This document shows, piece after piece, positions 6,075-22,611 of a DNA stretch of 64,000 nt (its first letter is position 1; the number at the start of each line of letters is the position of its first letter). The notes under the pieces were generated by a model. That model saw nothing but the letters and a program-made list of their open reading frames with translations. It made no database searches and was not told the origin of the DNA. Source of the DNA: Candidatus Krumholzibacteriia bacterium (lineage in GTDB: Bacteria; Krumholzibacteriota; Krumholzibacteriia; Krumholzibacteriales; Krumholzibacteriaceae); contig JAGLYV010000078.1 in the NCBI GenBank assembly GCA_023131975.1, positions 73,240 through 137,239 of the forward strand, read 5' to 3'. The translations under genes and the position numbers were made by a program.

Positions 6075-8430
6075 TATTTCTCTGTCTGCCCCTACCCTTC
6101 CTGTCTACAACTTTCCCATCCCCGGGAATAAGCGCCCTTTCCAACACATCTTCGACCCTGTCTACAAAAACGAATTCAACATCGTTTAGTACTTCTCCGG
6201 GTATTTCGTCAAGGGCGTTCCTGTTCTGCGCCGGCAGGATGACATTCAATATCCCGGCCCTGTGCGCCGCGATTACCTTATCCTTTATTCCTCCCACAGG
6301 CAACACTTTCCCTGTAAGGGTTATTTCCCCCGTCACCGCAGTATCGTTTCTTACCTTTCTGCCGGTGGCCAGGGATGTCAGTGCCGCAGCAATCGCTATT
6401 CCTGCGCTCGGCCCATCTTTCGGAACCGCCCCGGCAGGAATATGAAGATGTATGTCATGTTTTTCAAAGAATTTTTCATTATTTCCGGAGTCTGAGATAT
6501 GTGCCCTTACAAAGCTCATCGCCGTTTCGGCCGACTCCTTCATAACATCACCGAGCTGCCCGGTCAGCTTGACCTTACCGCTCCCTTTTATTGCCAGAGC
6601 CTCAATAAAGAGTATTACTCCACCGGTAGCAGTCTTGGCCATACCAGTCGCAACCCCTGCTTCAGGAGCCGACAGCATCTCCTGCCTGTGAAAATCCTTC
6701 GCGCCCAGATAATTCTTTATGTTGCGCGGAGTGATCCTGTAGGGACCTCTCTTGCCCTCAACAAGTTTTCTTGCGATCTTTCGAGCTATCGAGCCGATTT
6801 TTCTCTCCAGATTCCTGACTCCCGCCTCTCTCGTATATTTTTCTATTATCTCATAAAGAGCCTCGTCTGTTATTTCGATCTTTCCAGCCTTGATCCCATT
6901 CTCATCGAGCTGTCTTGGTATGAGAAAATCGCGGGCTATCTTCACTTTTTCACTGGTGATATATCCCGGAATATCGATGATCTCCATCCTGTCGAGAAGA
7001 GGTACCGGAATCGATTCTTTGACGTTTGCGGTCGTTATGAACATGACTCCGGAAAGGTCGAACGGCATGTTGATATAATTATCCAGAAAAGTGCTGTTCT
7101 GTTGTGAATCCAGGACCTCGAGAAGGGCTGATGACGGATCGCCCCTGTGATCGTTACCCAGCTTATCGATCTCGTCCAGCATGAAAACGGGATTTCTCGT
7201 CCCCGCAGTTCTTATGCCCTGTAGTATTTTCCCGGGCATTGCCCCGATATATGTCCTCCTGTGTCCACGTATCTCGGCTTCGTCCCTGATCCCTCCAAGC
7301 GAGATCCTCACAAAATCACGCCCCATTGCCGAAGCGATGCTCCTGCCAAGAGATGTCTTCCCCACTCCGGGGGGGCCCGTAAGACAGATGATGGTGCCTT
7401 TACTTCCCTCGTTCAGCTTCCTTACGGCGAGAAATTCCAGCAGCCTTTCCTTGACCGTGTCCAGATCGTAATGGTCCCGGTCCAGAATCTTCTTGGCTTC
7501 AGCGATATCGAGAATATCATGCCTGAGATCCTCCCAGGGCAGGTCCAGGACACAATCGAGATAAGTCCTCGTCACGTTATACTCGGAAGAACTGCTGCTC
7601 ATTCTCGATAGCCTGTTCCATTCCCGGATCGCCATCTCCCGGACATGTTCCGGCATGACCTTGATATCAATACTGTCCCTTAATTCGTCCAGTTCTCCAG
7701 TCAGATCGGTATCTCCGAGCTCTTTCTGAATGGCTCTGATCTGCTGCCTGAGATAATATTCCTTCTGCTCACGGTCCATCTCACGATGGACATCATCCTT
7801 TATCCTCTCCCCTATAGTTGCTATCTTGAGTTCGTTGTTAATATTCTGGTAGACAAATTCCAGCCTCTCGATCGGATCTATCATCTCGAGAGCTTTCTGC
7901 CTGCTGGAGATATCCATGTTGATATTCGAGGCGAGCAGGTCAGCCAGCCTTCCCGGACCTTCTATCCCGGGAATAACGTTCAGGAGATCATCCGGATAAA
8001 ACTCGGATTTACCGACAAGCTGCGCGAAAGCACCGGATACGTTTCTGACGAGAGCCAGGCCTTCATCGGAATCCGCGGGGGGTTCCACCAGGAGCTTGAT
8101 CTTCGCCCTCATGAACGGTTCATCGTCCGTAAAACATCCGATCTCTATCCGGGACAGTCCCTGCCCGATTATCCTCACATGCCCGTCCGGAAACCTCGCC
8201 ATCTTCTGGAGTACCATGGCACACCCGGTCGTATACAGATCTCCGGGGCCGGGCATATCCATCTCGCTGTCGATCTGAGTGAATGCTCCGACTATCTTGT
8301 TCCCATCAAGAGCCTCGTCTATGAGTCTGATGAGGTTGTCATCCCTTAGAATAAGAGGGACAAGCATATAAGGAAATACGACACCATCATTTATCGGGAT
8401 TACCGCGAGCTCATCGGAAATCTTCCCCAT
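6067..8430 (-). CDS. lon: ATP-dependent Lon protease
   Basis: Walker A GPPGVGKT, GHRRTYIGAMPG, catalytic Ser in KDGPSAG and Lys in GGIKDK. Start moved from 8538 to ATG 8430 (8478 also possible) because a promoter overlaps the longer start. Confidence 0.95.
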   Translation of the reverse strand: MGKISDELAVIPINDGVVFPYMLVPLILRDDNLIRLIDEALDGNKIVGAFTQIDSEMDMPGPGDLYTTGCAMVLQKMARFPDGHVRIIGQGLSRIEIGCFTDDEPFMRAKIKLLVEPPADSDEGLALVRNVSGAFAQLVGKSEFYPDDLLNVIPGIEGPGRLADLLASNINMDISSRQKALEMIDPIERLEFVYQNINNELKIATIGERIKDDVHREMDREQKEYYLRQQIRAIQKELGDTDLTGELDELRDSIDIKVMPEHVREMAIREWNRLSRMSSSSSEYNVTRTYLDCVLDLPWEDLRHDILDIAEAKKILDRDHYDLDTVKERLLEFLAVRKLNEGSKGTIICLTGPPGVGKTSLGRSIASAMGRDFVRISLGGIRDEAEIRGHRRTYIGAMPGKILQGIRTAGTRNPVFMLDEIDKLGNDHRGDPSSALLEVLDSQQNSTFLDNYINMPFDLSGVMFITTANVKESIPVPLLDRMEIIDIPGYITSEKVKIARDFLIPRQLDENGIKAGKIEITDEALYEIIEKYTREAGVRNLERKIGSIARKIARKLVEGKRGPYRITPRNIKNYLGAKDFHRQEMLSAPEAGVATGMAKTATGGVILFIEALAIKGSGKVKLTGQLGDVMKESAETAMSFVRAHISDSGNNEKFFEKHDIHLHIPAGAVPKDGPSAGIAIAAALTSLATGRKVRNDTAVTGEITLTGKVLPVGGIKDKVIAAHRAGILNVILPAQNRNALDEIPGEVLNDVEFVFVDRVEDVLERALIPGDGKVVDRKGRGRQRNNG

Positions 8431-8514
8431 AACAGATGTATCTTCATGATTACGTACCAATACCGGACCTTCCTTCATCCAGGCTTTCAACAAAACCCTC
8501 GCATGATGGTTTCC

Positions 8515-8543
8515 AGAATAGTGAAGGAAGTGTCCCAAGTCAA
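8515..8543 (-). promoter_or_regulatory. Sigma-70-type promoter of the lon-LPS operon
   Basis: TTGACT-N17-TATTCT on the minus strand with an AT-rich tract upstream. Confidence 0.6.
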
Positions 8544-8624
8544 TTTTAAAAAAGGAAATGAAAAGAACGCACCCCTGCCCTTACCTCCTGATGGGGTCAT
8601 AAAGGCCTCAGGCAAGTCTCCATA

Positions 8625-9068
8625 TCATTTCTTCGATGATCTCTTTTCGAGCCTGTTTCTGTCCATGACCATTGAAGGAGTGTAGACAAAGGTAGTACCG
8701 ACAAACCTTTTCATGTCGATGTCCCAGTCATCAAGAACATTGTCGTAGTTGAAAGTCAGGGTATAGATCAGGACCGAACTGGAAGCACTGTTATCAACAT
8801 AGTACACCCAGTACTCCTCCGCCTGCTTTTTTGATATCATGTAGACGTTAGGCAGTCCCCATGAAGCTATCACCTCGTGTCCATTCATCCCACGCGTGAT
8901 CTCACCATCTCTGATGTTCTCGTTGTACCTGCAGTCCGGATTCAGCTCGATGTACTCCTCCCTCGCGCAGAGATCCACAAAAGACTCTCTTTCTACAAGC
9001 GAAGAACACGCACAGCCCAGATCGATCAGCAGCACCAACATGGCAGGGATGACCAATAATCTTCTCAT
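8625..9068 (-). CDS. Exported/lipoprotein with a SmpA/BamE-like motif
   Basis: Probable start MRRLLVIPAM (ATG 9068, GAGG upstream); signal with Cys (LGCAC); GMNGHEVIASWGLPN...EYWVY resembles the BamE GMT-V-LG-P...W-Y pattern. Confidence 0.55.
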   Translation of the reverse strand: MRRLLVIPAMLVLLIDLGCACSSLVERESFVDLCAREEYIELNPDCRYNENIRDGEITRGMNGHEVIASWGLPNVYMISKKQAEEYWVYYVDNSASSSVLIYTLTFNYDNVLDDWDIDMKRFVGTTFVYTPSMVMDRNRLEKRSSKK

Positions 9069-9348: not shown

Positions 9349-10854
9349 TCAATCTCCGCCTTTGACCATGACCAGTCTTACCCCGGTGAATTCCCAGATC
9401 CGGCCTTCTTCAGAAACGGAAGACAGGGTTTTCATGAATACTCCGTCAGGGTCTACTTCCCACTCACGGCTGCCCAGATACCAGACTCTACTGTAACTTG
9501 AGAGCTGTGATTCGATACGTACTCTCGTCTCTTCGTTCCCGATGAAAAGCGGAGAATATTCAACTACATCGATTTTCTTCTTGCAGTAGTACTCGAAAAC
9601 ATCCCTTCCGCAGGAGAGGATCACCAGGTCCCCGGCATCCGCATTTGCTGTGATCATGTCCGCCGCACTTCTGAAATCGTCTCTCGAATAACGATCGACC
9701 ATATGATAATTCCAGTTTGAATAGAGCATGATCAGGACTACCGCAGCAAATGCCGGCGGTGCCCAGACGCGCCTGTTTTGAATACCAAGTGCCAGCGTTG
9801 CTATGTATAGTGGGAAAAAACAAATCAGGTACCGCACATTAAACACCTTGATATTCATCAGGGCCGCCACAGTGACAAGGACGAACGTTGTCAGGGATAT
9901 CGAAAGGAATAATCCAAGGAGTCTCTCTCTGCGGCTCCTGTACAATCCGGCCACAGTCAGTAGAAAAAAAACGATCCCTGCCGGGATTATCCACCAGCCC
10001 TGGCTTTTCAGTAATTCTGTCCCCGACGATATCCTGTGAAGCTGATTAAGGTCCGGGCCGAACGAGAATCCGGTGGAAAAAGCATAAAAGGCGTAAGGGT
10101 AAGACCACCGATTCAGTGTCAATTCCCCTCTGAGTCGCGCCTCATCCGGTAAAGACGAGATCGAGACAACATCGATATTTCGAAGAAAATATATCTCGCG
10201 GTAGACCCACGGAGAGACCATGATCAGTGTAATCAGGGCTGCTAACAGCCCGGGGCGGAGCCATTTCCCTCTCAACCTGCCGGAGAGGGCGATATATACG
10301 AGGAATCCTCCGCAGAGAAAAAGCGCCATAAAATGAGACAGGCACGTCAGCCCCAGAGTAACGCCGAGAATTACACCGTTTTTTCGGGAGGGATCGTCGA
10401 GAAATCTCTTGAACGTTATCAGTGAGAGGATAATAAACAGAACAAGGACAGAATAGAATCTCATCTCCTGAGAATAGAATATATGAAAAGGACTGACTGC
10501 CAACAGAAACGCGCCGGTCAGGGCGGTCCTGGAGTCGGTTATCGACGACATCCATCTGTACATAAGTATCACAGATCCGACTCCGGCGACGGCCCCCGGA
10601 GTCCGGAGCCAGGTCTCAGAGGATCTCGCCATGCTCCAGAAGTGCATCACCAGCGAATATAGCGGACCGTGCATGTCCCAGAGAAGTTTCCTCCAATAGG
10701 ATATTCCCGGGGGTGGTGAAACATAGGAGCCCGCAGTAAGTATCTCGTCTATCCAGAACGATTGATGTCCAAGTCGATAAAAACGAAGCACCGCCGCGAT
10801 AATTACTATTCCCGAGAGGATCAGCATTCGTCTTCTGTGTTCATCAGATCTCAT
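9349..10854 (-). CDS. GT-C membrane glycosyltransferase (GT39/ArnT/PMT-like)
   Basis: LRFYRLGHQSFWIDE, HGPLY and YSQEMRFYS motifs; multiple TM helices and a soluble C-terminal domain. Confidence 0.75.
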   Translation of the reverse strand: MRSDEHRRRMLILSGIVIIAAVLRFYRLGHQSFWIDEILTAGSYVSPPPGISYWRKLLWDMHGPLYSLVMHFWSMARSSETWLRTPGAVAGVGSVILMYRWMSSITDSRTALTGAFLLAVSPFHIFYSQEMRFYSVLVLFIILSLITFKRFLDDPSRKNGVILGVTLGLTCLSHFMALFLCGGFLVYIALSGRLRGKWLRPGLLAALITLIMVSPWVYREIYFLRNIDVVSISSLPDEARLRGELTLNRWSYPYAFYAFSTGFSFGPDLNQLHRISSGTELLKSQGWWIIPAGIVFFLLTVAGLYRSRRERLLGLFLSISLTTFVLVTVAALMNIKVFNVRYLICFFPLYIATLALGIQNRRVWAPPAFAAVVLIMLYSNWNYHMVDRYSRDDFRSAADMITANADAGDLVILSCGRDVFEYYCKKKIDVVEYSPLFIGNEETRVRIESQLSSYSRVWYLGSREWEVDPDGVFMKTLSSVSEEGRIWEFTGVRLVMVKGGD

Positions 10855-10904
10855 AGAGGTTATTCTTAACTCAGTCGGAGAATAATTTCCAGTTGAAAAG
10901 GAAC

Positions 10905-11474
10905 TCAGCTCTTGATCACGAAAGTTATTAGCACAGCCGCAAAGACAACAAGAAGGTAGAACAGGAGTCTCGCGGGTGGAAAAGAAGTTTTTACTGATTT
11001 GCCGAAAGAAGTACTGCTTTTTGGTTGTCTGACCTGCTCTTCGCCAATGCGAGCCATACAGAACTGGCAGAAATCATCATCTTTGCCAAGTGAAAATCCG
11101 CACTTCCCGCAGGATTTCGGCCGGGCAGCTTTCATGTCCGGATTACTTTCCACCCCCACACTCTTCGGATCCTCACGCACAATCCTTCCAACTCCCCCTG
11201 CTTCTTCCACAAGCAGGAGAAGGCCATTCGCCTTCGATTTGGATGTTCCTTCCCACATCGAAACCGGCAGATTCCTTAAAATATATTTTATTTTTGTAAC
11301 GGGAATATTTGTCAGAAGACCAAATTTAATGGCGAAGGAGTCCAGAGTCTCGACCTGGTTCATCACTCCATCTATCACGACATGATAGCTGGCGCGTTTC
11401 CCCCCGGCTGAATTCCCCAGATCTATCCCCGACACTCCTGTGTCTCTTCTTTTTTCAGTCTTCGTTTCAGGCAT
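10905..11474 (-). CDS. Hypothetical membrane protein: L7/L12 C-terminal-like domain + zinc ribbon + C-terminal TM helix
   Basis: LPVSMWEGTSKSKANGLLLLVEEAGG resembles the L12 CTD; CGKC-x10-CQFC; hydrophobic C-terminus; GGGAGG SD before the ATG. Confidence 0.65.
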   Translation of the reverse strand: MPETKTEKRRDTGVSGIDLGNSAGGKRASYHVVIDGVMNQVETLDSFAIKFGLLTNIPVTKIKYILRNLPVSMWEGTSKSKANGLLLLVEEAGGVGRIVREDPKSVGVESNPDMKAARPKSCGKCGFSLGKDDDFCQFCMARIGEEQVRQPKSSTSFGKSVKTSFPPARLLFYLLVVFAAVLITFVIKS

Positions 11475-11499
11475 ACCTGTCCTCCCTTTCCGTTTTTTC

Positions 11500-11514
11500 G
11501 CATTATCCGTGCCA
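11500..11514 (-). promoter_or_regulatory. Sigma-54 (-24/-12) promoter candidate
   Basis: TGGCAC-GGATA-ATGC with GG and GC 10 nt apart, intergenic, 26 nt upstream of the ATG at 11474. Confidence 0.6.
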
Positions 11515-11577
11515 TATTGTGGAAAACACTCACGGACATCGCATAGAAAGGTTCATATGCCAGGTACGGTTACGGAA

Positions 11578-11958
11578 TCAGTCCTGTGCCATCTCGCAGA
11601 TCGTCTCTGTCCGCAACCCCTCATGCCCATCCAGATCGACGGCTGACACCTTGTAGCAGTATATCATGTTACCTATGAGGTCCTTGTCTATATACGTTGT
11701 ACCTGATGCAGTACCAACGAATTCCTCAAGACCATACATCTCATAGAAGTAATAGACCCTGAATTCGCTGACTTCACTTAAATCACCCGGATAAGTCCAT
11801 TCGAGCGTCAATTCGTTCGGGCTTGGGGTGACTGTGAATGCGGTCGGAGAATCCGGAGCAGAGAATTCGAATCCGGCAGGTGACTCACCATGATCGGCAC
11901 TGCAGGACATTATGAGTATCGACGATATTATCAATATCAGGCATGCAATACGCTTCAT
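11578..11958 (-). CDS. Lipoprotein with a fibronectin type III-like domain
   Basis: Start MKRIACL (AAGGAG SD); lipobox-like IMSC; LTLEWT...FRVY...YCYKVSAVD Fn3 pattern. Confidence 0.7.
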   Translation of the reverse strand: MKRIACLILIISSILIMSCSADHGESPAGFEFSAPDSPTAFTVTPSPNELTLEWTYPGDLSEVSEFRVYYFYEMYGLEEFVGTASGTTYIDKDLIGNMIYCYKVSAVDLDGHEGLRTETICEMAQD

Positions 11959-11972
11959 CTCGATCTCCTTCT

Positions 11973-12458
11973 CTAGAACGTGAATGTCCTGCATATCATA
12001 AATCCATCATGTCGAGGCTCCAATGTCAGTAGCGGAATCTCCGCTTCAGGCCCCCATATCATATCCGCTACTCCGACTACCCAGACTCCGATAGCCGCAC
12101 CAACCAGCATTTTCCTGTATTTATCAAGATTTTCGGCATCGTCCCAGGCCTCGACCATCTGAGAATGATAGAGCTGAGCATCCCCTATATAGCTGGCATT
12201 CTCGTACATTATCCTGGCATGGTCATAGACTTCGACCTTTCTGTCATACTGGATATCAGCTACCCCGAGCCATCCCAGCGCTACGATCTCCATCCCGAAC
12301 AGGAGTGTCCCCCTGGTATATCTGCCCGTACGAAACTGCCCAAGCCCCGGGAAAAGGGCAGAATAGACGATATCTTCCGCCTCGGCCGCAATCAGTCCGG
12401 TCGAAGGCAGCATGATCGATACAGCAAGAAATACCAGGACCAGCTTTTTCATCATCAT
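11973..12458 (-). CDS. Exported/membrane hypothetical protein (DUF5683-like)
   Basis: Signal peptide then YSALFPGLGQF...GRYTRG motif typical of this family. Confidence 0.55.
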   Translation of the reverse strand: MMMKKLVLVFLAVSIMLPSTGLIAAEAEDIVYSALFPGLGQFRTGRYTRGTLLFGMEIVALGWLGVADIQYDRKVEVYDHARIMYENASYIGDAQLYHSQMVEAWDDAENLDKYRKMLVGAAIGVWVVGVADMIWGPEAEIPLLTLEPRHDGFMICRTFTF

Positions 12459-12565: not shown

Positions 12566-12594
12566 TTGACACTCCACTGAAAAGAAATTAGTTT
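12566..12594 (+). promoter_or_regulatory. Sigma-70-type promoter of the ABC/AmmeMemoRadiSam operon
   Basis: TTGACA-N17-TAGTTT in the divergent intergenic region. Confidence 0.6.
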
Positions 12595-12664
12595 AAATTA
12601 CCAGTGTTTCGTGAACGTGAAGCATCGAGTCGACATGTTATTTTCGATGTCCGGAGGTAATGCT

Positions 12665-13612
12665 TTGATCCGTGTCAACGGACTCTCAAGAAATTATGGG
12701 TTAAACAAGGCTGTCGACAACCTCACCTTCGATGTAGCGAAGGGAGAGGTCCTTGGATTTCTCGGCCCGAACGGAGCCGGCAAAACGACAACGATGAAGA
12801 TGCTCACATGTTTTCTACCTCCTGATTCGGGCAGCGCTTCGATCTTTGGATACGATATCGTCAGAGATTCCATGGAAGTCCGAAAAAGGATAGGATACCT
12901 CCCGGAAAGATCACCACTCTATTCAGACATGAAAGTCCGCGACTATCTCCATTTCGTGGGCAGGCTGAAAGGTCTGGCCCCACCGCGCCTTAAAAGTGCG
13001 GTTGATAACGCCGTTTCCGGATGTGGCCTCGAGTCAGTTTTCCACAGTACTATCGCAAAACTTTCAAAAGGTTATCAGCAACGTGTCGGAATAGCCCAGG
13101 CCATCCTGCACGATCCTGAACTGCTCATCCTTGATGAACCGACGATAGGTCTTGATCCAAGACAGATAATCGACATCCGGCAACTGATCCGCAACCTGGG
13201 GCGTGACCGTACAGTGATCCTCAGCAGTCATATCCTGCCCGAAGTGAATCAGGTGTGCGACAGGGTGATTATCATAAACAAGGGGAAACTTGTCGCGGTC
13301 GATTCTCCTGATAATCTTCGTGAAAGGCTTAGGAAATCGTCGGTAACCAGGCTCTCTATCGGCAATTCTGTACCGTCCGGAGATATCACCATTGCTCTCG
13401 AATCAATAGAGGGAATACTTCTCGTGAGCAAAGAATACGATGACGGATCGATATCGAAGTATATCATCGAATCGGAAATTGATTCAGATATCCGAAACGC
13501 GATAATCAGGAAACTTGTCAGTGAGGACATCCCTCTTCTCGAGATATATAACGAGGAACTTTCTCTGGAGGACATCTTCATCCAGCTCGTTACCGAGGAG
13601 GCACCCTCTTGA
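12665..13612 (+). CDS. ABC transporter ATP-binding protein, GldA-like
   Basis: GPNGAGKTT, LSKGYQQRVG, LILDEPT, SSHILPEV; TTG start at 12665 chosen for the GGAGG SD 7 nt upstream (track start 12611). Confidence 0.9.
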   Translation: MIRVNGLSRNYGLNKAVDNLTFDVAKGEVLGFLGPNGAGKTTTMKMLTCFLPPDSGSASIFGYDIVRDSMEVRKRIGYLPERSPLYSDMKVRDYLHFVGRLKGLAPPRLKSAVDNAVSGCGLESVFHSTIAKLSKGYQQRVGIAQAILHDPELLILDEPTIGLDPRQIIDIRQLIRNLGRDRTVILSSHILPEVNQVCDRVIIINKGKLVAVDSPDNLRERLRKSSVTRLSIGNSVPSGDITIALESIEGILLVSKEYDDGSISKYIIESEIDSDIRNAIIRKLVSEDIPLLEIYNEELSLEDIFIQLVTEEAPS

Positions 13613-14379
13613 AGAAATTCGGCGCGATATACAGAAAAGAACTCAAGTACTATTTCACGTCTGTGACTGCATACGTCACGATAACAGTCTTCCTGGTACT
13701 TTCGGGTTATTTTTTCTTCTCAATATTCAGAGTCTACAACCTGCTTTCACTTCAGGCGATCAAGAATAACGACTTCAGCGGCAACCTCAATCTTATTGAC
13801 GGAGTGATGAGGCCTCTGATGGGCAACTTCAGCATTATCCTTCTCATCCTCCTTCCTCTTCTGACAATGAGGCTTCTGGCAGAAGAAAGGAAACAGGGCA
13901 CATTCGAACTTCTTTTGACCTACCCTGTAACGGACATGGCTGTGGTCGCCGGGAAATATTTCTCCGCTTTGACGGTCTATACTGTAATGCTCGCGTCCAC
14001 TCTTCTTTATCCCATCCTGTTGATCATTTTCACCGACCCGGAAATAATGCCTTTGGTGTCAGGCTATCTTGGGCTGTTTCTGATGGGCGCGTCATTTATC
14101 TCGATAGGAACCTTCTTTTCAGCGACCACCTCGAACCAGATGGTCGCAGGCGTAGCCACATTCGGGGTCACACTTCTTTTTCTTATAATTGGATGGACCG
14201 CTCCCTTCGCGGGGCCAACGGCCTCGGCGATACTTTCCGAGTTTTCGATACTGTTTCATCTCGATTCCTTCACAAAGGGGATAATAGATACAAGGGATAT
14301 ATCCTATTATCTATTCCTGAGCGGTTTCTTCTTTTTTCTCACACTCAAGTCACTTGAGTCAAACAGGTGGAAGATCTGA
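13609..14379 (+). CDS. ABC-2 permease, GldF-like
   Basis: KELKYYF, PLLTMRLLAEERKQGTFELLLTYPV, FTKGIIDTRD; TTGA overlap with the ATPase gene. Confidence 0.88.
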   Translation: MKKFGAIYRKELKYYFTSVTAYVTITVFLVLSGYFFFSIFRVYNLLSLQAIKNNDFSGNLNLIDGVMRPLMGNFSIILLILLPLLTMRLLAEERKQGTFELLLTYPVTDMAVVAGKYFSALTVYTVMLASTLLYPILLIIFTDPEIMPLVSGYLGLFLMGASFISIGTFFSATTSNQMVAGVATFGVTLLFLIIGWTAPFAGPTASAILSEFSILFHLDSFTKGIIDTRDISYYLFLSGFFFFLTLKSLESNRWKI

Positions 14380-15944
14380 TGAAGGATAATCTCAGAAAGA
14401 TCATAGGCCCCACCGGCCTGATACTTACAGTAATCGGGAGTGTTATATACGGCATTCTCTTTGAGAGCGGATGGATTGCTTTCATCCCTCTTTTTGCCGG
14501 TCTCACTCTCTCCATCCTCGCATTGATAATCGAAGTTCGAGTCTCGTCATCCGAGGGACGCAGGCGTTCGGCCAGATTCGGGATAAACACAGGTGTGACT
14601 ATAGTAGTCGTTGCTGCTCTCCTGTTCTTCGCGCAGACTCTTTCAAAACGCCACAGCCTGAGAATAGACACCACAAGTAACAGAAGGTTCTCCATTTCCC
14701 TTCAGACGGCTAAAGTGCTGAAAAACCTGAAAGACGATATAAGATTCACCTGTTTTTTCAGAGAAGGTGTTCCTGAAAAAACAGAAGTTTTCGACTTACT
14801 TTCAGAATACAGGGTCACCACACCAAAGATAAGCTTCCGCTTCATCGATCCTGACCAGGACCCGATTACCGCAAGAAGATACGAGTTGAAGGATTACAAC
14901 AATATCTACATTGAATCCGGGGACCGCATCGATCTTTTGGAAAACTGGTCGGAACAGCGTATCACAAACGCTATAAAAGCTATCCTTTCCGGAGGAAGGA
15001 AAAAGGTATACTTTACGACTGGCCATGGTGAAAGGTCTATCGAAGACAAAGAACCCTCCGGCCTGAGTTCACTTGCCGAAGCGTTGAGGATTGAAAATTT
15101 CGAGACAGCAGATTTCCTGCCTCTCGGAAGCGACAAGATCCCATCCGACTGCAAACTGCTGGTAATAGCCGGTCCCAAAAAAGACATCCTGAGACCGGAG
15201 CGAAACCTGATATTTGACTATTTGACTTCCGGTGGAAACATACTTCTTCTCCTCGATCCGATCGCCGAGATTCCTTACATCGTATCGGTTGCTTCAGCCT
15301 TCGGGATAGGGGTCGGCGACGACATCATCATCGACACATTCGGAAAGACTCTCGCCGGCAATTACCTCACTCCTGTGGTAAACCAGTACGGGACTCATCC
15401 GATAACCGATCAATTTCGGCTTTTTTCCTTTTTCCCCCAGGCAAGATCCATCAACGTCAGGGAAAATCTGCCGGATGGCGTAATAGTCACAATCCTTGGA
15501 AAGACCGATGATGAGGCCTATGCCGAGACCAGTATCGACACTCTTTTGAATATCGGCAAGACGCAGTTCGAAGCTCCCGACGACCTTCCAGGCCCTATAT
15601 CTCTCATAGCTGCCGGAGAAATGGGACTTCCTCCAGCTCCTGGAGACACACTATTCGACTCCCCTGAGAAAAAAACCAGGGCCGTTGTTTTCGGCGACAG
15701 TGATTTCACCGCCAACGGCAACATCAGGCTGTCCGGAAACCGCGATCTTATTCTGAATACGATCAACTGGCTGGCCGAGGAAGAGGATCTGATCTCTATA
15801 AGACCCGCGGATCGACTCAACCAGCCGGTACTGCTTTCTTCACGCCAGGGCCTGGTTGTATTCTGGTTGTCTGTTATCGGATTCCCGGCTCTCTTCGCCC
15901 TGGCCGGATTGTTCGTCACTCTCCGCATCCGCCGTTCGGATTGA
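14379..15944 (+). CDS. GldG-like ABC auxiliary component
   Basis: Three N-terminal TMs, RIDTT-N-RFS, FIDPDQDP, VYFTTGHGE, VFGDSDF, C-terminal TM; TGATG overlap with the permease gene. Confidence 0.85.
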   Translation: MKDNLRKIIGPTGLILTVIGSVIYGILFESGWIAFIPLFAGLTLSILALIIEVRVSSSEGRRRSARFGINTGVTIVVVAALLFFAQTLSKRHSLRIDTTSNRRFSISLQTAKVLKNLKDDIRFTCFFREGVPEKTEVFDLLSEYRVTTPKISFRFIDPDQDPITARRYELKDYNNIYIESGDRIDLLENWSEQRITNAIKAILSGGRKKVYFTTGHGERSIEDKEPSGLSSLAEALRIENFETADFLPLGSDKIPSDCKLLVIAGPKKDILRPERNLIFDYLTSGGNILLLLDPIAEIPYIVSVASAFGIGVGDDIIIDTFGKTLAGNYLTPVVNQYGTHPITDQFRLFSFFPQARSINVRENLPDGVIVTILGKTDDEAYAETSIDTLLNIGKTQFEAPDDLPGPISLIAAGEMGLPPAPGDTLFDSPEKKTRAVVFGDSDFTANGNIRLSGNRDLILNTINWLAEEEDLISIRPADRLNQPVLLSSRQGLVVFWLSVIGFPALFALAGLFVTLRIRRSD

Positions 15945-15953
15945 GAGGCACTC

Positions 15954-17300
15954 ATGACCTGGAAGACTCCCGTAATCCTCACCTGCATTCTCGTAGTGAT
16001 CGTGGGCTATTTTTTCATCGTGGATCAGGCTGGACATGATAAATCTGAGCTTGAGAAAAGGATTGCAAGAACAGTACTCCCCTACACTATCGAAGAAGTC
16101 GACAGCGTCCACTTCACTAATCCCGTGGGAGAAAACATAAATTTCCTCCGCGATGAGAGCGGCTGGCTCATCGTCTATCCGACGGTTGCACGCGGCGCCC
16201 TTTCTACAATCGAATACTTTATCACCCAGATGATACCCGGTATAAAGAAAAACGAATTCGTACCTGGCGGCAACCTGGCTGATTATGGTCTTTTTCCTCC
16301 TTACGCGATAGTCGTATTCTTTAACGGCACCTCCGGGCGGATCGATACTATGCTCATCGGCGATTCGACTCCGCTGACTTCTCAATGCTACGTTCGCATC
16401 GGAGGGGATGACAGGATATTCGTTACAAGAGACCTCACCCGTAATCTCGTAAAAAAGACTCTATATCATCTTCGTGAGAAATCTTTCATGGACCTTTCTC
16501 CTGATTCCATCTCCGCTTTCAGCGTAAGGACCGGGGAAAGCAGTGTCACTTTCGAGAACCGTCTCGGCGCGTGGCTGATCAGAGGGACAAGGATAGGCGC
16601 CGACAAGAATCTCATACAACCGTACCTTACAGGTATCACCGAAGCCATTATCCAGGAATTTGCTGCTGAAAATACCGGGGCCCTTTCTGAATTCGGTATC
16701 TGCGACTCCTGCAGGGACCTTACCCTCTTCACCGACTCGGATTCGATAACGATATCATTCGGAGGGACCACAGGCGACCTCGTGTACGCTGTCCGCAGAG
16801 GGACTGGAAAAGTGGTTCGCCTGGAAAAGAAACTCGATCGGATATTCGACTGGCTTGATGAAGATGTCCTGGTCATGAACATCTCGTATTTCATCCCTGA
16901 TCAGGTACACTCCCTCACATGGGAAACAGCCGATCGTTCACAGACAATAAGTCGTGAAGTCGATCTCTGGAAGACTGGCTCTTCCATGCCGGTAATCATC
17001 ACTACAAAGAACGTCCACTATCTGCTTACTCTTCTCCGGGGGCTGGTCTTTGATTCTATTGTCACAGTCGGAGAAAAAATTGACTTCGACGCTCCGATCG
17101 GAGATTCTACGACGAAGATCAGTCTTAGAGATATCAATGGTCAGACCATCGACGTCATATTGATATCCAGGGAAATCGACGGCAGCGAAAAAGCCGCGTC
17201 TATTACGACCGGCACATCGGGAACGATCAAAACCAACACATTTGATGAAATAAGAAGGGTATATGCAAGGTTCATACGGGAAGGTGACAGCCTGAAATGA
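15954..17300 (+). CDS. DUF4340-like periplasmic protein with N-terminal TM anchor
   Basis: N-terminal TM, repeated W-I...A units, LADYGL-PP motif; usual position after GldG-like genes. Confidence 0.7.
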   Translation: MTWKTPVILTCILVVIVGYFFIVDQAGHDKSELEKRIARTVLPYTIEEVDSVHFTNPVGENINFLRDESGWLIVYPTVARGALSTIEYFITQMIPGIKKNEFVPGGNLADYGLFPPYAIVVFFNGTSGRIDTMLIGDSTPLTSQCYVRIGGDDRIFVTRDLTRNLVKKTLYHLREKSFMDLSPDSISAFSVRTGESSVTFENRLGAWLIRGTRIGADKNLIQPYLTGITEAIIQEFAAENTGALSEFGICDSCRDLTLFTDSDSITISFGGTTGDLVYAVRRGTGKVVRLEKKLDRIFDWLDEDVLVMNISYFIPDQVHSLTWETADRSQTISREVDLWKTGSSMPVIITTKNVHYLLTLLRGLVFDSIVTVGEKIDFDAPIGDSTTKISLRDINGQTIDVILISREIDGSEKAASITTGTSGTIKTNTFDEIRRVYARFIREGDSLK

Positions 17301-18421
17301 AACGAAATTCTCCGGGCATATTGACTCGCAGAAGTTTTCTCGCCGGGTGTTCAGCGTTTTTTGTTTCAGGTATAGCCTCACCTCTGTCCTCCCTTGCTTC
17401 CCCCGCATTGTCTCCTCTTGAGGCGCGCTTCTATTCGAAGCTGAAGGGGGGAAAAACAATATGCGGACTCTGCCCCCACGGATGCATCATTGACAGCGGT
17501 GAACGGGGGCTGTGTGGAGTAAGGGAAAACCGTGACGGTATTCTTTACTCGCTCGTCTATGGTCTCCCCTGTTCGATCCACCTCGACCCTATCGAGAAAA
17601 AACCTTTTTTTCACTTCCTGCCAGGTTCTTCATCTCTATCGATCTCGACCGTCGGATGCAATATGACCTGCAAATTCTGTCAGAACTGGCAGATATCCCA
17701 ATCATCACCGGAGGATCTTGACACAGATCATCTATCTCCGGAATCGGTCGCGGCCAGGGCCTCTACTCTGGGCGCACGTTCCATCTCTTTCACGTATGGG
17801 GAACCGGTAGTCTTCTACGAGTATATGACCGACATCGCCCTTTCCGCGCGTGATAGAGAGCTGTACAGCGCCGTTGTCACTAACGGCTATTATTCACCGG
17901 ACGCGATCCGTCAGCTCTGCGGTCTGGTAAACGCTGTCAAGATCGACCTCAAATCATTCAGCGAATCATATTACAGAGACATCTGCGGAGCCACTCTACA
18001 GCCTGTCCTGGAAAGCATGAAGATCATCAGGGATTCCGGCACGTGGATGGAGATCGTGTATCTGATGGTTCCCGGACTCAACGACAGCCGGGAAGAGATA
18101 GAGCAGATGGCACGATGGATAGTCGATGAACTGGGCATGGATGTCCCCGTCCATATCTCCCGCTTTTTTCCGCAATACAGGCTGGCTAATCTTCCTCCGA
18201 CTCCCCTCTCTTCTCTTGAATCAGCATACGGCATAATGCGTGATGCTGGTGTCAGGTATGTCTATCTAGGCAACCTGCCTGATCACAGATCCATGAGTAC
18301 CTATTGCCATTCCTGTGGAAAGAAGATAATATCGAGAAAAGGCTACAGGATTTCATCCATATCCTTGAATAATGGAAACTGCGGATTCTGCGGAGAGGAG
18401 ATCCCGGGAATATGGTCCTGA
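17297..18421 (+). CDS. amrS: AmmeMemoRadiSam system radical SAM enzyme with a Tat-like N-terminus
   Basis: CGLCPHGC...GLCGVR, DPIEKKPFFHF, CNMTCKFCQNWQISQ (CxxxCxxC), C-terminal CHSC/CGFC; N-terminal TRRSFLAG. Confidence 0.92.
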   Translation: MKRNSPGILTRRSFLAGCSAFFVSGIASPLSSLASPALSPLEARFYSKLKGGKTICGLCPHGCIIDSGERGLCGVRENRDGILYSLVYGLPCSIHLDPIEKKPFFHFLPGSSSLSISTVGCNMTCKFCQNWQISQSSPEDLDTDHLSPESVAARASTLGARSISFTYGEPVVFYEYMTDIALSARDRELYSAVVTNGYYSPDAIRQLCGLVNAVKIDLKSFSESYYRDICGATLQPVLESMKIIRDSGTWMEIVYLMVPGLNDSREEIEQMARWIVDELGMDVPVHISRFFPQYRLANLPPTPLSSLESAYGIMRDAGVRYVYLGNLPDHRSMSTYCHSCGKKIISRKGYRISSISLNNGNCGFCGEEIPGIWS

Positions 18422-20004
18422 GAAAAACAGGATGGGTCTCTATTCTGATCATCGGGACTTTTCTGACCATGGCAGGTCCGGATCCGGTCAAGTCTAACGG
18501 AAAAAGAGGTCTTTCCATGAAGAACGGCGTACGTTTGCCGGCAGTAGCCGGGCAGTTCTATCCCGATGATCCTGAAGTTCTTCGTAACGAGATCAAAACG
18601 ATGTTTGAAAAGATCGATAACACCCCTCCCGCCGGAACAATCATCGCTCTGGTTTCTCCCCACGCGGGATATGTCTATTCCGGCCAGGTAGCGGCTGAAG
18701 CATTCGCTCGTCTTGAAGAGGGGCAGTTCGAGACAGTCGTCGTCATTTCTCCATGCCACATCGATTTCTTCCCCTATGCTTCCATATTTCATGGTGATGC
18801 CTACAGGACACCCCTTGGAGATATCCAGATCGATTCTACTCTTGCCGTCGCTATCGCGGGCGGTAGCGATTTGATAAAGATCGGTGAATCCGGCCATGTA
18901 GCCGGAAGTAGCGGCAGAGGGGAACATTCTCTCGAAGTTCAACTGCCTTTCCTGCAAGTCGCTCTCGGTGAATTCAAACTCGTACCGATCGTCATGGGAG
19001 ATCAGTCAGCTGACATCATCAAAGAGCTCGCTGCCGCGCTTGGCAGGGAACTGAAAGACAGGAATGTCCTCATGGTCGCGAGTACCGATCTTTCCCATTT
19101 CCACAGCGCTGGTACCGCGGAGTCTCTGGACAGGGTATTCATAGAGAATCTCACCGACCTCGCGCCTGACAAACTGATGCGTTCGATTTCCACACGGCAG
19201 ACTGAAGCCTGTGGAGGCGGCCCGACAGCTGCCGTCATGATAGCAGCGAAAGAACTTGGCGCCGATTGTTGTACTATTCTCAAATACGCAGATTCCGGAG
19301 ATGTCAGCGGGGACGATACGAGTGTCGTTGGATATGTATCAGCATCCATCTCAAGATCTTCTCAACACTCCAAAGACTGTATCGGAAAAGAAAAGCTGAA
19401 GGAACAAGGGTCCCTTAACGATGGTATGGACAATAACAGGGAATCTGGACTTACCGATTCTGACATGAGATTTCTACTTTCTTACGCAAGACACATCCTT
19501 GAAACTTCATTCAACGAAAAGAAAACCGAGCTTACCATCCCCACCTCCGCCATATTGCGTGAGAAACGAGGTGGATTCGTCACCCTTCACAAGAATAACA
19601 GGCTGCGCGGCTGTATAGGATATATCGAAGCCATAAAGCCCCTTATCGATACAATCGCGGAAATGGCCGAAGCGGCCGCGTTTCACGATCATCGTTTTCC
19701 CCCTCTCCGAAAAGAGGAACTTCTCGATATTACCATAGAGATCTCCGTACTCAGCCCCGTCAGAAAGATCGAAGATGTGTCAAACATCGTAGTGGGAAAG
19801 CACGGCATCATCATTTCAGCCGGGGGTCACAGAGGACTTCTTCTCCCACAGGTCGCCACTGAATGGAAATGGGACAGGGAGACATTCCTCTCGCAGACTT
19901 GCCTGAAAGCTGGACTCGATCCGGATGCCTGGAAAGATAAAGAAACGATTATCGAGATCTTTTCAGCAAAGATCTTCTCCGAGAAGGAAATGGGAATGCG
20001 ATAG
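18412..20004 (+). CDS. amrB: AmmeMemoRadiSam protein B (Memo) fused to protein A (AMMECR1)
   Basis: Memo motifs PAVAGQFYP, PHAGYVYSG, EHSLEVQLPFL, STDLSHF, ACGGGP followed by AMMECR1 motifs LRGCIG, DHRFPPL, GLLLPQVA. Confidence 0.92.
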   Translation: MVLRKTGWVSILIIGTFLTMAGPDPVKSNGKRGLSMKNGVRLPAVAGQFYPDDPEVLRNEIKTMFEKIDNTPPAGTIIALVSPHAGYVYSGQVAAEAFARLEEGQFETVVVISPCHIDFFPYASIFHGDAYRTPLGDIQIDSTLAVAIAGGSDLIKIGESGHVAGSSGRGEHSLEVQLPFLQVALGEFKLVPIVMGDQSADIIKELAAALGRELKDRNVLMVASTDLSHFHSAGTAESLDRVFIENLTDLAPDKLMRSISTRQTEACGGGPTAAVMIAAKELGADCCTILKYADSGDVSGDDTSVVGYVSASISRSSQHSKDCIGKEKLKEQGSLNDGMDNNRESGLTDSDMRFLLSYARHILETSFNEKKTELTIPTSAILREKRGGFVTLHKNNRLRGCIGYIEAIKPLIDTIAEMAEAAAFHDHRFPPLRKEELLDITIEISVLSPVRKIEDVSNIVVGKHGIIISAGGHRGLLLPQVATEWKWDRETFLSQTCLKAGLDPDAWKDKETIIEIFSAKIFSEKEMGMR

Positions 20005-20009
20005 CCGTA

Positions 20010-22235
20010 TCAGTCGCTTACTCGACCGACCGCAAGAACTGAACCCACCCCATGCAGAAGGATCACCAGGGCCAGGGTCCACCATGTCCCCACTGCCGGT
20101 ATAAGGACCAGACTTCCAATAATACCACCCACACACCCTCCCAGAAGATCGAGTGAATAATAAAGGGCTGGATTTCTGTCAAGTGAGGCTATTGAAGATG
20201 CCTTGACAGATGCGAGAAAATAGGAGCCGGCAAGGAGACCGTTCAGGAACGAGAAAAGGTAGGTGCCAGCTTCGTGCGCTCTATAGCCGATTCCCGTTCT
20301 TTCCGAGATTACCAGAAATAAGACAAATGAAAGCACCATCATAAGAATAATAATGTGGAGATTCCGACGCTTGTGAAGAACGGCATATCTTTCGGCCAGG
20401 AATCCGCCGGAGCCTAAGGCGGCGCCTGCCATGAAGGAAGCTGAGATCATGACGATACCGTGATAAATGACTCCTGCGACAGCCTGAAGATCCATGATTA
20501 AAACAATCTGAAATACGAGAGCCGCAAATCCGGTCATAATGATCCCGGATCCGGTGTTTCTGTTTCCCCGAACTCCCAGCAGACCTATAAACGGAAGAAC
20601 GGTCAGGATGAGGATCGCTATGCGGGGAACATTGCCGTATCCAGCGAGAAGGGAAAGGACTCTGTTTCCGACACGCCTTGATTCCAGTTCGAGTTCGTAG
20701 TCCACCAGCGCGGGCATCCTGTCACTGTTGATCCTGACGTTGTTTCCACCTTCCATCGCCTTCATGAGATGACTGACCCTTTCCACACCCAACCTTTCCG
20801 GCAACGCGTCTCCTGTAAAGAACCCTGAATCCAACTCTCTCTCTCTCAGCTTGTCCATAATGTCATTGGCCCGTACTTTTCTACTTCCCGCAATAAAGTG
20901 TGCCGTGCTGCCGGGAAAGACAGATACCGAATCGAACTCCTCTTCGAGTGTGCGGTAGATACAGGACAAGGCTCTGGAAAGCTCGGGGGAAATATAGTTT
21001 TCGGACGATCTATGGGATAATGCCAGAAATCCACCGGATCGCAGACGATCCGACACCTCCCTGAAGAACTCTTTTGTGTAATATCGGTTCCACATCAGGT
21101 TTATCGGAAGAGGGGTATTGATAATGATCAGGTCGTACATATCGCTGGTCGACGAAAGATATCTTCTTGCGTCATCGATGATCCATTCGACTGAGGGGGC
21201 TTCCGGCCCGGCATTGTCCCGACTGGAAGATGCGGGCCCATATTTCCCGTAGAGTTCCAATAACGACCTGTCCAGTTCTACACAGTGGATATCCCTGACT
21301 CCCCGATGTAAAGATATCTCATCGATCGTCCCTCCAATAGTCCCTCCCGCAAGCAGGATTCTTTCCGGATCGTCAACTGAAAGCATCGGTATGTGGACAG
21401 CTTCACCGGCTCCGACAGGGTCCGGCACGGAAAACAGCCTTCCACCACCCGAGTATATGGATATGATCTCTCCCGAACTGACCATGTCGGACTCGCTGTA
21501 CCGTGATGAGGTGGAGGCTATGTAATCGTACCCCCTGTAGATATGTCTTCTGCTGTCCTGATCGATCTTGCTTCCACCGAATATGATCAACCCTGCAGCA
21601 GATACTGAAAGTGCTATCGCTACAAATGAGATCTTTCCACGAAAAGGGTACGCCGTAGTCGCGATAATGACTGCCGAAATTATGAGAGCTGCTTCGAAAT
21701 GCGAAAACCACCGCAGAAGAAGAGTATTAAAAAGCAGCCCTCCCACTACAGCCCCGACTGCCTCCAGGCAGTAGACCCTCGAAATCGTACTTTTCAGACC
21801 GTTCTCATCCGAGTCCCGGGATCTGACAGCCATATTGAATAATGCCCCGAAAATAATGGCTGTAGGAGCTATGACAAAAAATGCGAAAATAAGAGCCCGG
21901 CCATATTCGGGAATCGTACCTGGAGGAAAAGCCAGCACGCTCCTTCCGGCTCTTATACCTATTACCGTGAAAGGCAGCAGAATCGAGACGATCAAAGCAA
22001 AAGAGCCCAGGACCGACTTGGAGTATTTTACTACCCTGGATGAGAAACGTGCCGCAGCCAGACCACCCATTCCAACCCAGAACAACCATGAAGAAAGGAT
22101 AAATCCGATCGTAAACTCAGTACCCGAGAAAAGACAGAGAAGCTCCCGGATGTACAAGGCCTGGGAACAGAGGGCCCCGGCCCCGAAAGCCACTATATGG
22201 ACAGTGGATGGATATTGACGATTAGCACAGGGCAA
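20010..22235 (-). CDS. Fused multi-TM (MFS-like)/spermidine-synthase-like protein
   Basis: TM blocks flank a Rossmann domain (ILLAGGTIGG, CVELD, DDARRYL, YDLIIINTPLP, YYTKEFF); TTG start at 22235 after a GGAGG SD (track start 22358 overlaps the upstream gene). Confidence 0.8.
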   Translation of the reverse strand: MPCANRQYPSTVHIVAFGAGALCSQALYIRELLCLFSGTEFTIGFILSSWLFWVGMGGLAAARFSSRVVKYSKSVLGSFALIVSILLPFTVIGIRAGRSVLAFPPGTIPEYGRALIFAFFVIAPTAIIFGALFNMAVRSRDSDENGLKSTISRVYCLEAVGAVVGGLLFNTLLLRWFSHFEAALIISAVIIATTAYPFRGKISFVAIALSVSAAGLIIFGGSKIDQDSRRHIYRGYDYIASTSSRYSESDMVSSGEIISIYSGGGRLFSVPDPVGAGEAVHIPMLSVDDPERILLAGGTIGGTIDEISLHRGVRDIHCVELDRSLLELYGKYGPASSSRDNAGPEAPSVEWIIDDARRYLSSTSDMYDLIIINTPLPINLMWNRYYTKEFFREVSDRLRSGGFLALSHRSSENYISPELSRALSCIYRTLEEEFDSVSVFPGSTAHFIAGSRKVRANDIMDKLRERELDSGFFTGDALPERLGVERVSHLMKAMEGGNNVRINSDRMPALVDYELELESRRVGNRVLSLLAGYGNVPRIAILILTVLPFIGLLGVRGNRNTGSGIIMTGFAALVFQIVLIMDLQAVAGVIYHGIVMISASFMAGAALGSGGFLAERYAVLHKRRNLHIIILMMVLSFVLFLVISERTGIGYRAHEAGTYLFSFLNGLLAGSYFLASVKASSIASLDRNPALYYSLDLLGGCVGGIIGSLVLIPAVGTWWTLALVILLHGVGSVLAVGRVSD

Positions 22236-22236
22236 T

Positions 22237-22611
22237 TTATCCGCCTCCGAAATAATCCTCTTCGAAGACCTTCTTAAAATCGAACACACCGGTAAAGTCG
22301 TCCATGTTGTCGTCATCCGTTTTCTCGAGCATTTTCTCCTCGACAAGATTGAATACAACGTGCCCGATATCGCTTGTATCGATCAGCCCCCACTCGTTGA
22401 AGACCTGTTTTGCCATCGGCCCGAATTGCCTCATCGCCTGCATCCGCAGTCCTTCAAGTAGTTCCAGCCCCGATATATGCCTTTTTTCCTTGAGCTCTGA
22501 CAGGACCACATCTATGACTCCGAGGACAAAAACATACGCCTCTCTGGCATATCTCCTGTCGCTTTCAAGTATGACAGAAAGAATTTCTTCCCGATCATTC
22601 AAATCATTCAT
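22237..22611 (-). CDS. Conserved hypothetical protein, Minf_1886-like family
   Basis: RYAREAYVFV, RHISGLELL, QFGPMAKQVFNEWG, DIGHVVFNLVE, DDNMDDF match the family pattern as I remember it. Confidence 0.7.
   Translation of the reverse strand: MNDLNDREEILSVILESDRRYAREAYVFVLGVIDVVLSELKEKRHISGLELLEGLRMQAMRQFGPMAKQVFNEWGLIDTSDIGHVVFNLVEEKMLEKTDDDNMDDFTGVFDFKKVFEEDYFGGG

Follow-up and report, generated by a model that had tools for sequence, protein, structure and literature searches.

Two described systems bear on the locus reported here. In the canonical AmmeMemoRadiSam system, the proteins of the family models, namely the radical S-adenosylmethionine (SAM) enzyme AmrS together with Memo and AMMECR1 (AmmeMemoRadiSam proteins B and A), are signal-less and cytoplasmic. 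To our knowledge radical SAM enzymes are in general treated as strictly cytoplasmic, and neither SAM nor a low-potential reductant is known to occur outside the cell. In the GldA/GldF/GldG gliding-motility system of Flavobacterium johnsoniae, an ATP-binding cassette (ABC) ATPase, an ABC-2 permease and a GldG-type auxiliary protein with an ABC_transp_aux domain form a three-protein architecture. Relatives of both systems stand side by side in a 64,000-nucleotide (nt) stretch of the genome of a Candidatus Krumholzibacteriia bacterium (contig JAGLYV010000078.1, positions 73,240 to 137,239; hereafter the window), where six tightly packed plus-strand open reading frames (ORFs) at 12611–20004 encode a common ABC-2/GldG/DUF4340 exporter cassette beside an exported variant of AmmeMemoRadiSam. 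We consider it likely that these are two independent envelope modules that became neighbors through one event in the Krumholzibacteriota lineage. What is new about the locus is the export of an otherwise known system rather than any composite with the cassette.

Both AmmeMemoRadiSam products of the window belong to their families by wide margins. AmrS (374 amino acids [aa], 17297–18421, plus strand) scores 373.2 bits against TIGR04337 (cutoff 220) over residues 43–373, and Memo and AMMECR1 are fused in one 530-aa protein (18412–20004, plus strand) that scores 274 bits against TIGR04336 (cutoff 26) and 192 bits against TIGR04335 (cutoff 99) and matches PF01875 and PF01871. As in the canonical system, the genes are adjacent and translationally coupled and the radical SAM motif CxxxCxxC is intact (CNMTCKFC, C121/C125/C128, invariant in 30 homologues). 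The homologue alignment shows further invariant cysteines at the N terminus (C56/C59/C63/C73/C92) and the C terminus (C337/C340/C362/C365), and the CxxCH heme motif is absent in the window, where CGLCPH is found instead. The nearest characterized radical SAM relatives of AmrS are the glycyl-radical-enzyme activases PflA and NrdG (TIGR02493, 63 bits; TIGR02495, 60 bits), which points to a protein or a small bound substrate as the target of the 5′-deoxyadenosyl radical. AmrS differs from these activases in falling far under both cutoffs (231 and 131) and in adding the two cysteine clusters and an export signal. Three features set the window apart from the canonical AmmeMemoRadiSam system: about 42 extra N-terminal residues of AmrS that carry a twin-arginine translocation (Tat) motif and lie outside the family model, the fusion of Memo and AMMECR1 behind a general secretion (Sec)-type signal, and a constant extra partner, a protein with 14 transmembrane (TM) segments and a spermidine-synthase (SpeE)-fold domain that is predicted to face outward.

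Export signals on AmrS and Memo-AMMECR1 are widespread. The first-pass annotation of this DNA proposed export-like N termini on both products, and these are indeed present in the window and conserved in relatives from ~20 phyla. The TIGR04337 model begins only after residues 1–42 of AmrS, which hold the putative Tat signal (residues ~1–40), with TRRSFLAG followed by a mildly hydrophobic stretch, so that the N terminus, L-T-R-R-S-F-L-A-G-CSAFFVSGIASPLSSLA, fits the Tat consensus S/T-R-R-x-F-L-K plus a hydrophobic region (h-region). An RR-x-hydrophobic-hydrophobic motif occupies the same place in 107/120 of the closest AmrS homologues (53–99% identity), and the 13 remaining sequences are mostly N-terminally truncated gene calls. 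Across AmrS loci from ~20 phyla (80 fetched from species-representative genomes, 84 in the motif count), roughly three quarters have the RR motif shortly before the first block of cysteines, and its flanking residues vary freely. In 11–13 sequences, mostly from Omnitrophota, a Sec-type signal replaces the Tat motif on AmrS (for example MKKSLLLLILLLSVLFPAIGA). These Omnitrophota-type loci are L023, L027, L041, L046, L053, L059, L062, L070, L073, L075, L076, L079 and L081, and a Sec-type signal is odd for an iron-sulfur (Fe-S) enzyme. The N terminus of the window fusion, MVLRK-TGWVSILIIGTFLTMA-GPD, is predicted to be a Sec-type signal peptide or short anchor (residues ~1–22), and all Memo-AMMECR1 fusions in the surveyed loci, from many phyla, carry a short hydrophobic segment directly before the Memo domain, several of these segments having lipobox-like or AxA-like ends. 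The conservation of both signals exceeds chance, and on this pattern the AmmeMemoRadiSam pair looks periplasm-facing. A literature search, whose coverage left out Burroughs et al. 2019 on Memo-AMMECR1, found no paper on an exported or extracytoplasmic radical SAM enzyme or on an exported AmmeMemoRadiSam variant; in the HXS system, it is the substrate that is exported and not the enzyme (PMC13128918).

The exported AmrS and Memo-AMMECR1 have a recurrent membrane partner, the 14-TM protein, encoded convergently at 20010–22358 on the minus strand and thus outside the region on which the first-pass annotation commented. Homologues of this protein lie within a few kilobases of AmrS, in both orientations, at 42/78 loci outside the window clade, as frequently as Memo-AMMECR1 itself (39/78). 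The phyla include Acidobacteriota, Omnitrophota, Planctomycetota, Zixibacteria, Aminicenantes, Thermodesulfobacteriota, Nitrospirota, Eisenbacteria, Sumerlaeota, Kiritimatiellota and others. In the window the stops of memo-ammecr1 and the 14-TM gene converge with 5 nt between them (20004–20010), so no terminator can fit there, and the two genes converge within 0–23 nt in all clade relatives.

Structure prediction places a soluble domain in the middle of this protein. The SpeE-fold domain (PF01564, 8e-15) spans residues ~278–548, between TM7 and TM8, and a confident AlphaFold model (pLDDT 87, pTM 0.89), for which 41 homologues were used as input, consists of 7 TM helices, a soluble domain of 270 residues and 7 further TM helices. 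In Foldseek searches the soluble domain matches the SpeE structures 1UIR, 1INL and 3O4F (TMt 0.66–0.74, probability 1.0). Lysines plus arginines in the model loops average 17.5 opposite the domain vs. 3.4 on the domain side, with the same sign in 41/41 homologues, and by the positive-inside rule this would place the SpeE-fold domain in the periplasm. The arrangement differs from the known membrane-fused forms of SpeE (PRK03612; NF037959, fused MFS/spermidine synthase) in that the domain sits between TM7 and TM8 and is predicted to lie outside the cytoplasm.

The sequence of the domain suggests that it is not a spermidine synthase. It shares with SpeE the full fold and the acidic residues that bind ribose and adenine (E361 in 37/41 homologues, D363 in 37/41, D396 in 41/41), and it lacks the two signature motifs of the enzyme. 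GGGDG reads GGTIG in the window, with the Asp position occupied by Ile (V/L/A/I across the 41 homologues), and the catalytic DxxDP reads NTPLP, the second Asp being kept in 22/41 homologues. The protein also remains under all spermidine synthase family cutoffs (109/472 and 27.7/40). In plant spermidine synthase, the GGGDG Asp reportedly repels the SAM carboxylate; the D103I substitution abolishes aminopropyl transfer and spermidine synthase activity and allows the use of SAM, which V106T improves (PMC3725402). The window protein has Ile at the first of these positions and Thr at the equivalent of V106, as does putrescine N-methyltransferase, and in spermidine synthase these changes amount to a switch from decarboxylated SAM to SAM (PMC3725402). 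With the acidic residues kept and the GGGDG Asp and DxxDP changed, the domain resembles a protein that binds SAM-type nucleosides more than it does a spermidine synthase.

Outside the window clade, other proteins recur next to AmrS. A Tat-signal DUF362 protein of ~340 aa is encoded directly 5′ of amrS (~1 kb) at 30 loci of other phyla (including L008, L010–L013, L019, L021, L024 and L026; DUF362 was assigned by Pfam in one scanned copy, L012, and by homology in the rest). A NapH-like membrane polyferredoxin lies near AmrS at 15 loci of other phyla, and a CcdA/DsbD-like membrane protein at 13 Omnitrophota loci, the same loci that carry Sec-type AmrS. All three are periplasm-directed redox proteins, located at the outer face of the cytoplasmic membrane or handing electrons to it. 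None of the three kinds of neighbor occurs in the window-clade loci.

For the second module (17297–22358) we infer the following course. AmrS would fold and gain its Fe-S clusters in the cytoplasm and then be exported by Tat, the Memo-AMMECR1 fusion would leave via Sec, and the 14-TM protein would expose its domain for SAM-type nucleosides to the periplasm, where its likeliest task would be to deliver or hold SAM for AmrS, or to remove 5′-deoxyadenosine or methionine. More tentatively, we propose that the three proteins jointly constitute a radical SAM system with catalytic turnover beyond the cytoplasmic membrane. Under this proposal AmrS would arrive via Tat (via Sec in Omnitrophota) and Memo-AMMECR1 via Sec, the 14-TM protein would carry SAM across the membrane or hold it on an outward SpeE-fold domain without the SAM-excluding residue, and electrons would come from lineage-specific outward conduits, namely the NapH-like polyferredoxin, the CcdA-like protein and the Tat-signal DUF362 protein.

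Two alternatives dispense with turnover outside the cell. One possibility is that nothing is exported and that uncleaved hydrophobic N termini tether AmrS and Memo-AMMECR1 at the cytoplasmic face, forming an ordinary cytoplasmic AmmeMemoRadiSam system at the membrane. This would suit the SAM and low-potential reductant that radical SAM enzymes require, which are known only in the cytoplasm, and the outcome of the literature search, in which no extracytoplasmic radical SAM enzyme was found. We nevertheless consider it unlikely, since the canonical S/T-RR-x-F-L motif is under selection in ~20 phyla with the remaining N terminus free to vary, Omnitrophota swap the Tat motif for Sec-type signals, Memo-AMMECR1 carries short Sec-type h-regions, and the neighbors are outward electron-passing proteins together with a membrane protein that has a SAM-type domain on its predicted outer side. 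It is improbable, too, that AmrS consumes SAM a single time before leaving the cytoplasm, to mature itself or to modify a bound partner, and that Tat then carries it out as a completed Fe-S protein with no turnover outside, because this idea, which agrees with the ability of Tat to export folded, cofactor-loaded proteins and avoids the problem of SAM supply, leaves unexplained the conserved outward SAM-type domain next door, the Sec-type AmrS signals of Omnitrophota and the Sec export of the presumed partner Memo-AMMECR1.

The first module (12611–17300) follows a widespread plan. It begins with a GldA/DrrA-like ABC ATPase of 333 aa (12611–13612, plus strand; PF00005, 1.5e-29; DrrA1-3_C) and a GldF-like ABC-2 permease of 256 aa with ~6 TM segments by hydropathy (13609–14379, plus strand; PF12679/PF12698). 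A GldG-like auxiliary protein follows (14379–15944, plus strand; PF09822 [ABC_transp_aux], 6e-21; PF23357 [DUF7088], 1.8e-12), in which TM segments at the N and C termini are predicted to flank a large extracytoplasmic domain made of DUF7088 and ABC_transp_aux. The last gene encodes a 448-aa DUF4340 protein (15954–17300, plus strand; PF14238, 1.6e-22) with a single N-terminal TM anchor (residues 5–23) and a remainder predicted to be extracytoplasmic. This tightly coupled order of ABC_tran, ABC2_membrane, ABC_transp_aux (with DUF7088) and DUF4340 is found in the window and in nine relatives (L001–L003, L005, L006 and L085–L088) and a Poribacteria locus (L012). In one relative (L002) the GldG-like gene, at 6376–8656, is broken into two overlapping frames (6376–8280 and 7925–8656), a frameshift or an assembly error.

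The cassette is a relative of the Gld system, not an instance of it. The top-scoring NCBIfam models for the three ABC proteins are those of GldA (TIGR03522, 323.8 bits, cutoff 402.6), GldF (TIGR03518, 136.3 bits, cutoff 288.5) and GldG (TIGR03521, 72.3 bits, cutoff 389.85), and the window proteins, which share the three-protein architecture, fall short of all three equivalog cutoffs and are homologues rather than equivalogs. The window cassette also differs in having DUF4340 as a fourth gene and in its host, which is not a Bacteroidota glider. Most likely the module is an ATP-driven exporter, the periplasmic part of which would be built by the GldG-like and DUF4340 proteins. The literature search found nothing on the cargo of the DUF4340/GldG cassette.

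We studied the linkage of the cassette to amrS across 88 AmrS loci including the window, comprising 10 rows of the window clade (Krumholzibacteriota) and 78 loci of other lineages (~20 phyla), by searching the flanks with phmmer using the window proteins and with profile hidden Markov models (HMMs) built from seven cassette copies. The cassette (GldF-like, GldG-like and DUF4340) lies directly 5′ of amrS and on the same strand in 9/9 window-clade relatives with upstream sequence, the nine named above. By the same phmmer and profile HMM searches it is absent within 10 kb of AmrS from 77 of the 78 outside loci, of which 48 have at least 6 kb of upstream and 52 at least 6 kb of downstream sequence. 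The sole outside case is the Poribacteria locus, where the cassette stands on the opposite strand, 4.6 kb off, behind hisH/hisB/hisC; a frequency of 1/78 is about what chance placement would give. That locus also has a second short radical SAM ORF (10237–10818, 193 aa) directly 3′ of amrS and large BcrAD/BadFG-type activase genes upstream.

Phylogeny and synteny both point to one origin of the adjacency. On a maximum-likelihood tree of AmrS all ten rows in which the cassette adjoins amrS group in a single clade (SH-aLRT 96), and the presence of the cassette needs two changes only because of the Poribacteria locus; cassette–amrS adjacency therefore counts as a single gain. A linkage peculiar to this genome would have spoken against the composite system proposed in the first-pass annotation; the linkage is in fact shared by nine relatives and confined to one clade. 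About 15–20 kb of unrelated genes are likewise syntenic in the window clade, and the window shares these flanks: PMT_2, DUF72, an fn3-like gene and DUF5683 upstream, and the 14-TM gene, a Minf_1886-family gene, NadB and LpxK downstream. Given a single evolutionary origin, adjacency to the cassette therefore says no more than does the adjacency to nadB and lpxK, which is conserved to the same degree.

The spacing of genes also marks a boundary between the modules. Inside the cassette, neighboring genes in the clade are spaced by −50 to +48 nt, mostly −4 to +14 nt, and amrS–memo junctions are at most +6 nt, save for one gene call at +93 (L003); a second contig encoding that protein gives +6 there. 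The distance from DUF4340 to amrS, by comparison, is −4 nt in the window and 0, 54, 72, 120, 127, 189 and 472 nt among relatives, so that the window is the compact extreme of the clade at this junction. In most relatives the 54–472-nt spacer holds elements of the form TTGnnn-17-TAT(A/T)(T/A)T, read by eye, at 20–40 nt 5′ of amrS (TTGTAC/TATTAT in L001, TTGCGC/TATTCT in L086, TTTCAT/TATATT in L087, TTGCCG/TATCAT in L005 and TTGCGA/TATTTT in L003). An internal promoter or terminator between the DUF4340 gene and amrS, the other finding that would undercut a composite system, is accordingly suggested by promoter-like spacers in relatives, with no good promoter seen at that place in the window. Within the 472-nt spacer of L003 we also observed a 24-bp perfect inverted repeat with a 106-nt center (9731–9884), which might represent a small mobile element or else form a strong stem-loop. 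Finally, the DUF4340 protein of L003 and L088 is ~145 residues shorter (~300 aa), with AmrS intact.

Several observations weigh against the reading of two independent modules, the second of them exported. The DUF4340 stop and the amrS start overlap in the window (ATGA), which makes read-through from the cassette into amrS, and co-transcription, likely. No good internal promoter precedes the window amrS, where the sole candidate, TATATG at 17260, lacks a convincing −35 element. Adjacency of cassette and amrS has been kept in 10/10 clade members at 54–63% AmrS identity. In one cold-seep metatranscriptome sample, contigs of 120–234 nt match the GldF, DUF4340, AmrS, Memo-AMMECR1 and 14-TM genes at 95–99% identity, and none of these short contigs crosses the 17300 junction. 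The outward placement of the SpeE-fold domain comes from a predicted model and the positive-inside rule, and we know of no periplasmic source of SAM or of low-potential electrons.

These points leave room for a lineage-specific machine, in which the GldAFG-like exporter and DUF4340 were recruited to the exported AmmeMemoRadiSam in Krumholzibacteriota only and might, for instance, transport an envelope lipid or isoprenoid, as substrate or product, toward or away from the enzymes in the periplasm. In its favor, besides the shared strand, the 4-nt overlap in the window and the retained adjacency, all six products are predicted to be membrane or extracytoplasmic proteins, and the clade loci are without the DUF362, NapH-like and CcdA-like neighbors of other phyla. 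Against it stand the single origin, which deprives the adjacency of any information beyond that of NadB or LpxK, the near-chance frequency elsewhere, the promoter-like spacers of most relatives and the shortening of DUF4340 beside an intact AmrS. On balance we find such a machine improbable, and the proposal in the first-pass annotation that the cassette and AmmeMemoRadiSam form one machine is not supported. Likewise improbable is the combined idea that this exporter was also drawn into an extracytoplasmic radical SAM system in Krumholzibacteriota. If the two modules are independent, read-through into amrS in the window would be an accident of local gene packing and not a conserved functional coupling.

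The layout of the six-gene block itself, from ORF calls and a reading of the sequence, agrees with the first-pass annotation. The plus-strand ORFs span 12611–13612, 13609–14379, 14367/14379–15944, 15954–17300, 17297–18421 and 18412–20004. They are joined by TTGA between the ABC ATPase and permease genes (CTCTTGAAG), TGATG between the permease and GldG-like genes (CTGATGAAG), TGA, 9 nt and ATG between the GldG-like and DUF4340 genes, the 4-nt ATGA overlap between DUF4340 and amrS (AAATGAAAC), and a 10-nt overlap between amrS and memo-ammecr1 (ATG 18412, stop 18421). The GldG-like gene yields the TGATG junction when started at ATG 14379, and an alternative GTG lies at 14367. GAGG-type Shine-Dalgarno sequences precede most of the six genes. 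No second copy of any block gene was found within the 64-kb window. The closest homologues bear the name Krumholzibacteriota, and the sequencing runs that contain the stretch are cold-seep and marine-sediment metagenomes.

The single promoter claimed for the block fared less well. A sigma-70-like motif, TTGACA-17 nt-TAGTTT, is present at 12566–12594 (plus strand) in the 152-nt divergent intergenic region 5′ of the ABC ATPase gene, with TTGACA at 12566–12571. Its candidate −10 element, TAGTTT, fits the consensus at 3/6 positions, and a consensus promoter scan of the region does not list the site. Counts of promoter-like sites (10 vs. 10.8 ± 3.4 in shuffles) are not enriched, and those of terminator-like sites (11 vs. 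7.6 ± 3.1) are not in excess. The motif is thus a weak candidate, and its role as promoter of the block is not established.

Genes on both sides of the block are conserved. The divergent upstream block (9349–12458, minus strand), which is kept across the clade, encodes a GT-C glycosyltransferase of the PMT_2 family, a DUF5683 protein and two small proteins that match no family, so that the neighborhood as a whole is envelope-related. Downstream, a Minf_1886-family gene (22237–22611, minus strand; TIGR04138, 125 bits) separates the 14-TM gene from nadB, as it does in all relatives of the clade. The longest 14-TM ORF overlaps this gene by 122 nt (22237–22358), residues 1–46 of the 14-TM model have pLDDT below 50, and homologues align from residue ~40–57, which together suggest that the true start is probably at ~22235.

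For the cassette, the outcome is negative but useful: the GldG/DUF4340 genes are a common, mobile neighbor, and their adjacency here is no sign of a new composite machine. The exported variant carries the wider implication. If the reading offered here is true, a periplasm-facing AmrS and Memo-AMMECR1 with a SAM-type domain, conserved across phyla, would overturn the assumption that radical SAM enzymes are strictly cytoplasmic. Memo and AMMECR1 have human disease-linked homologues, and the exported system would then also provide a concrete handle on this unexplained pair.

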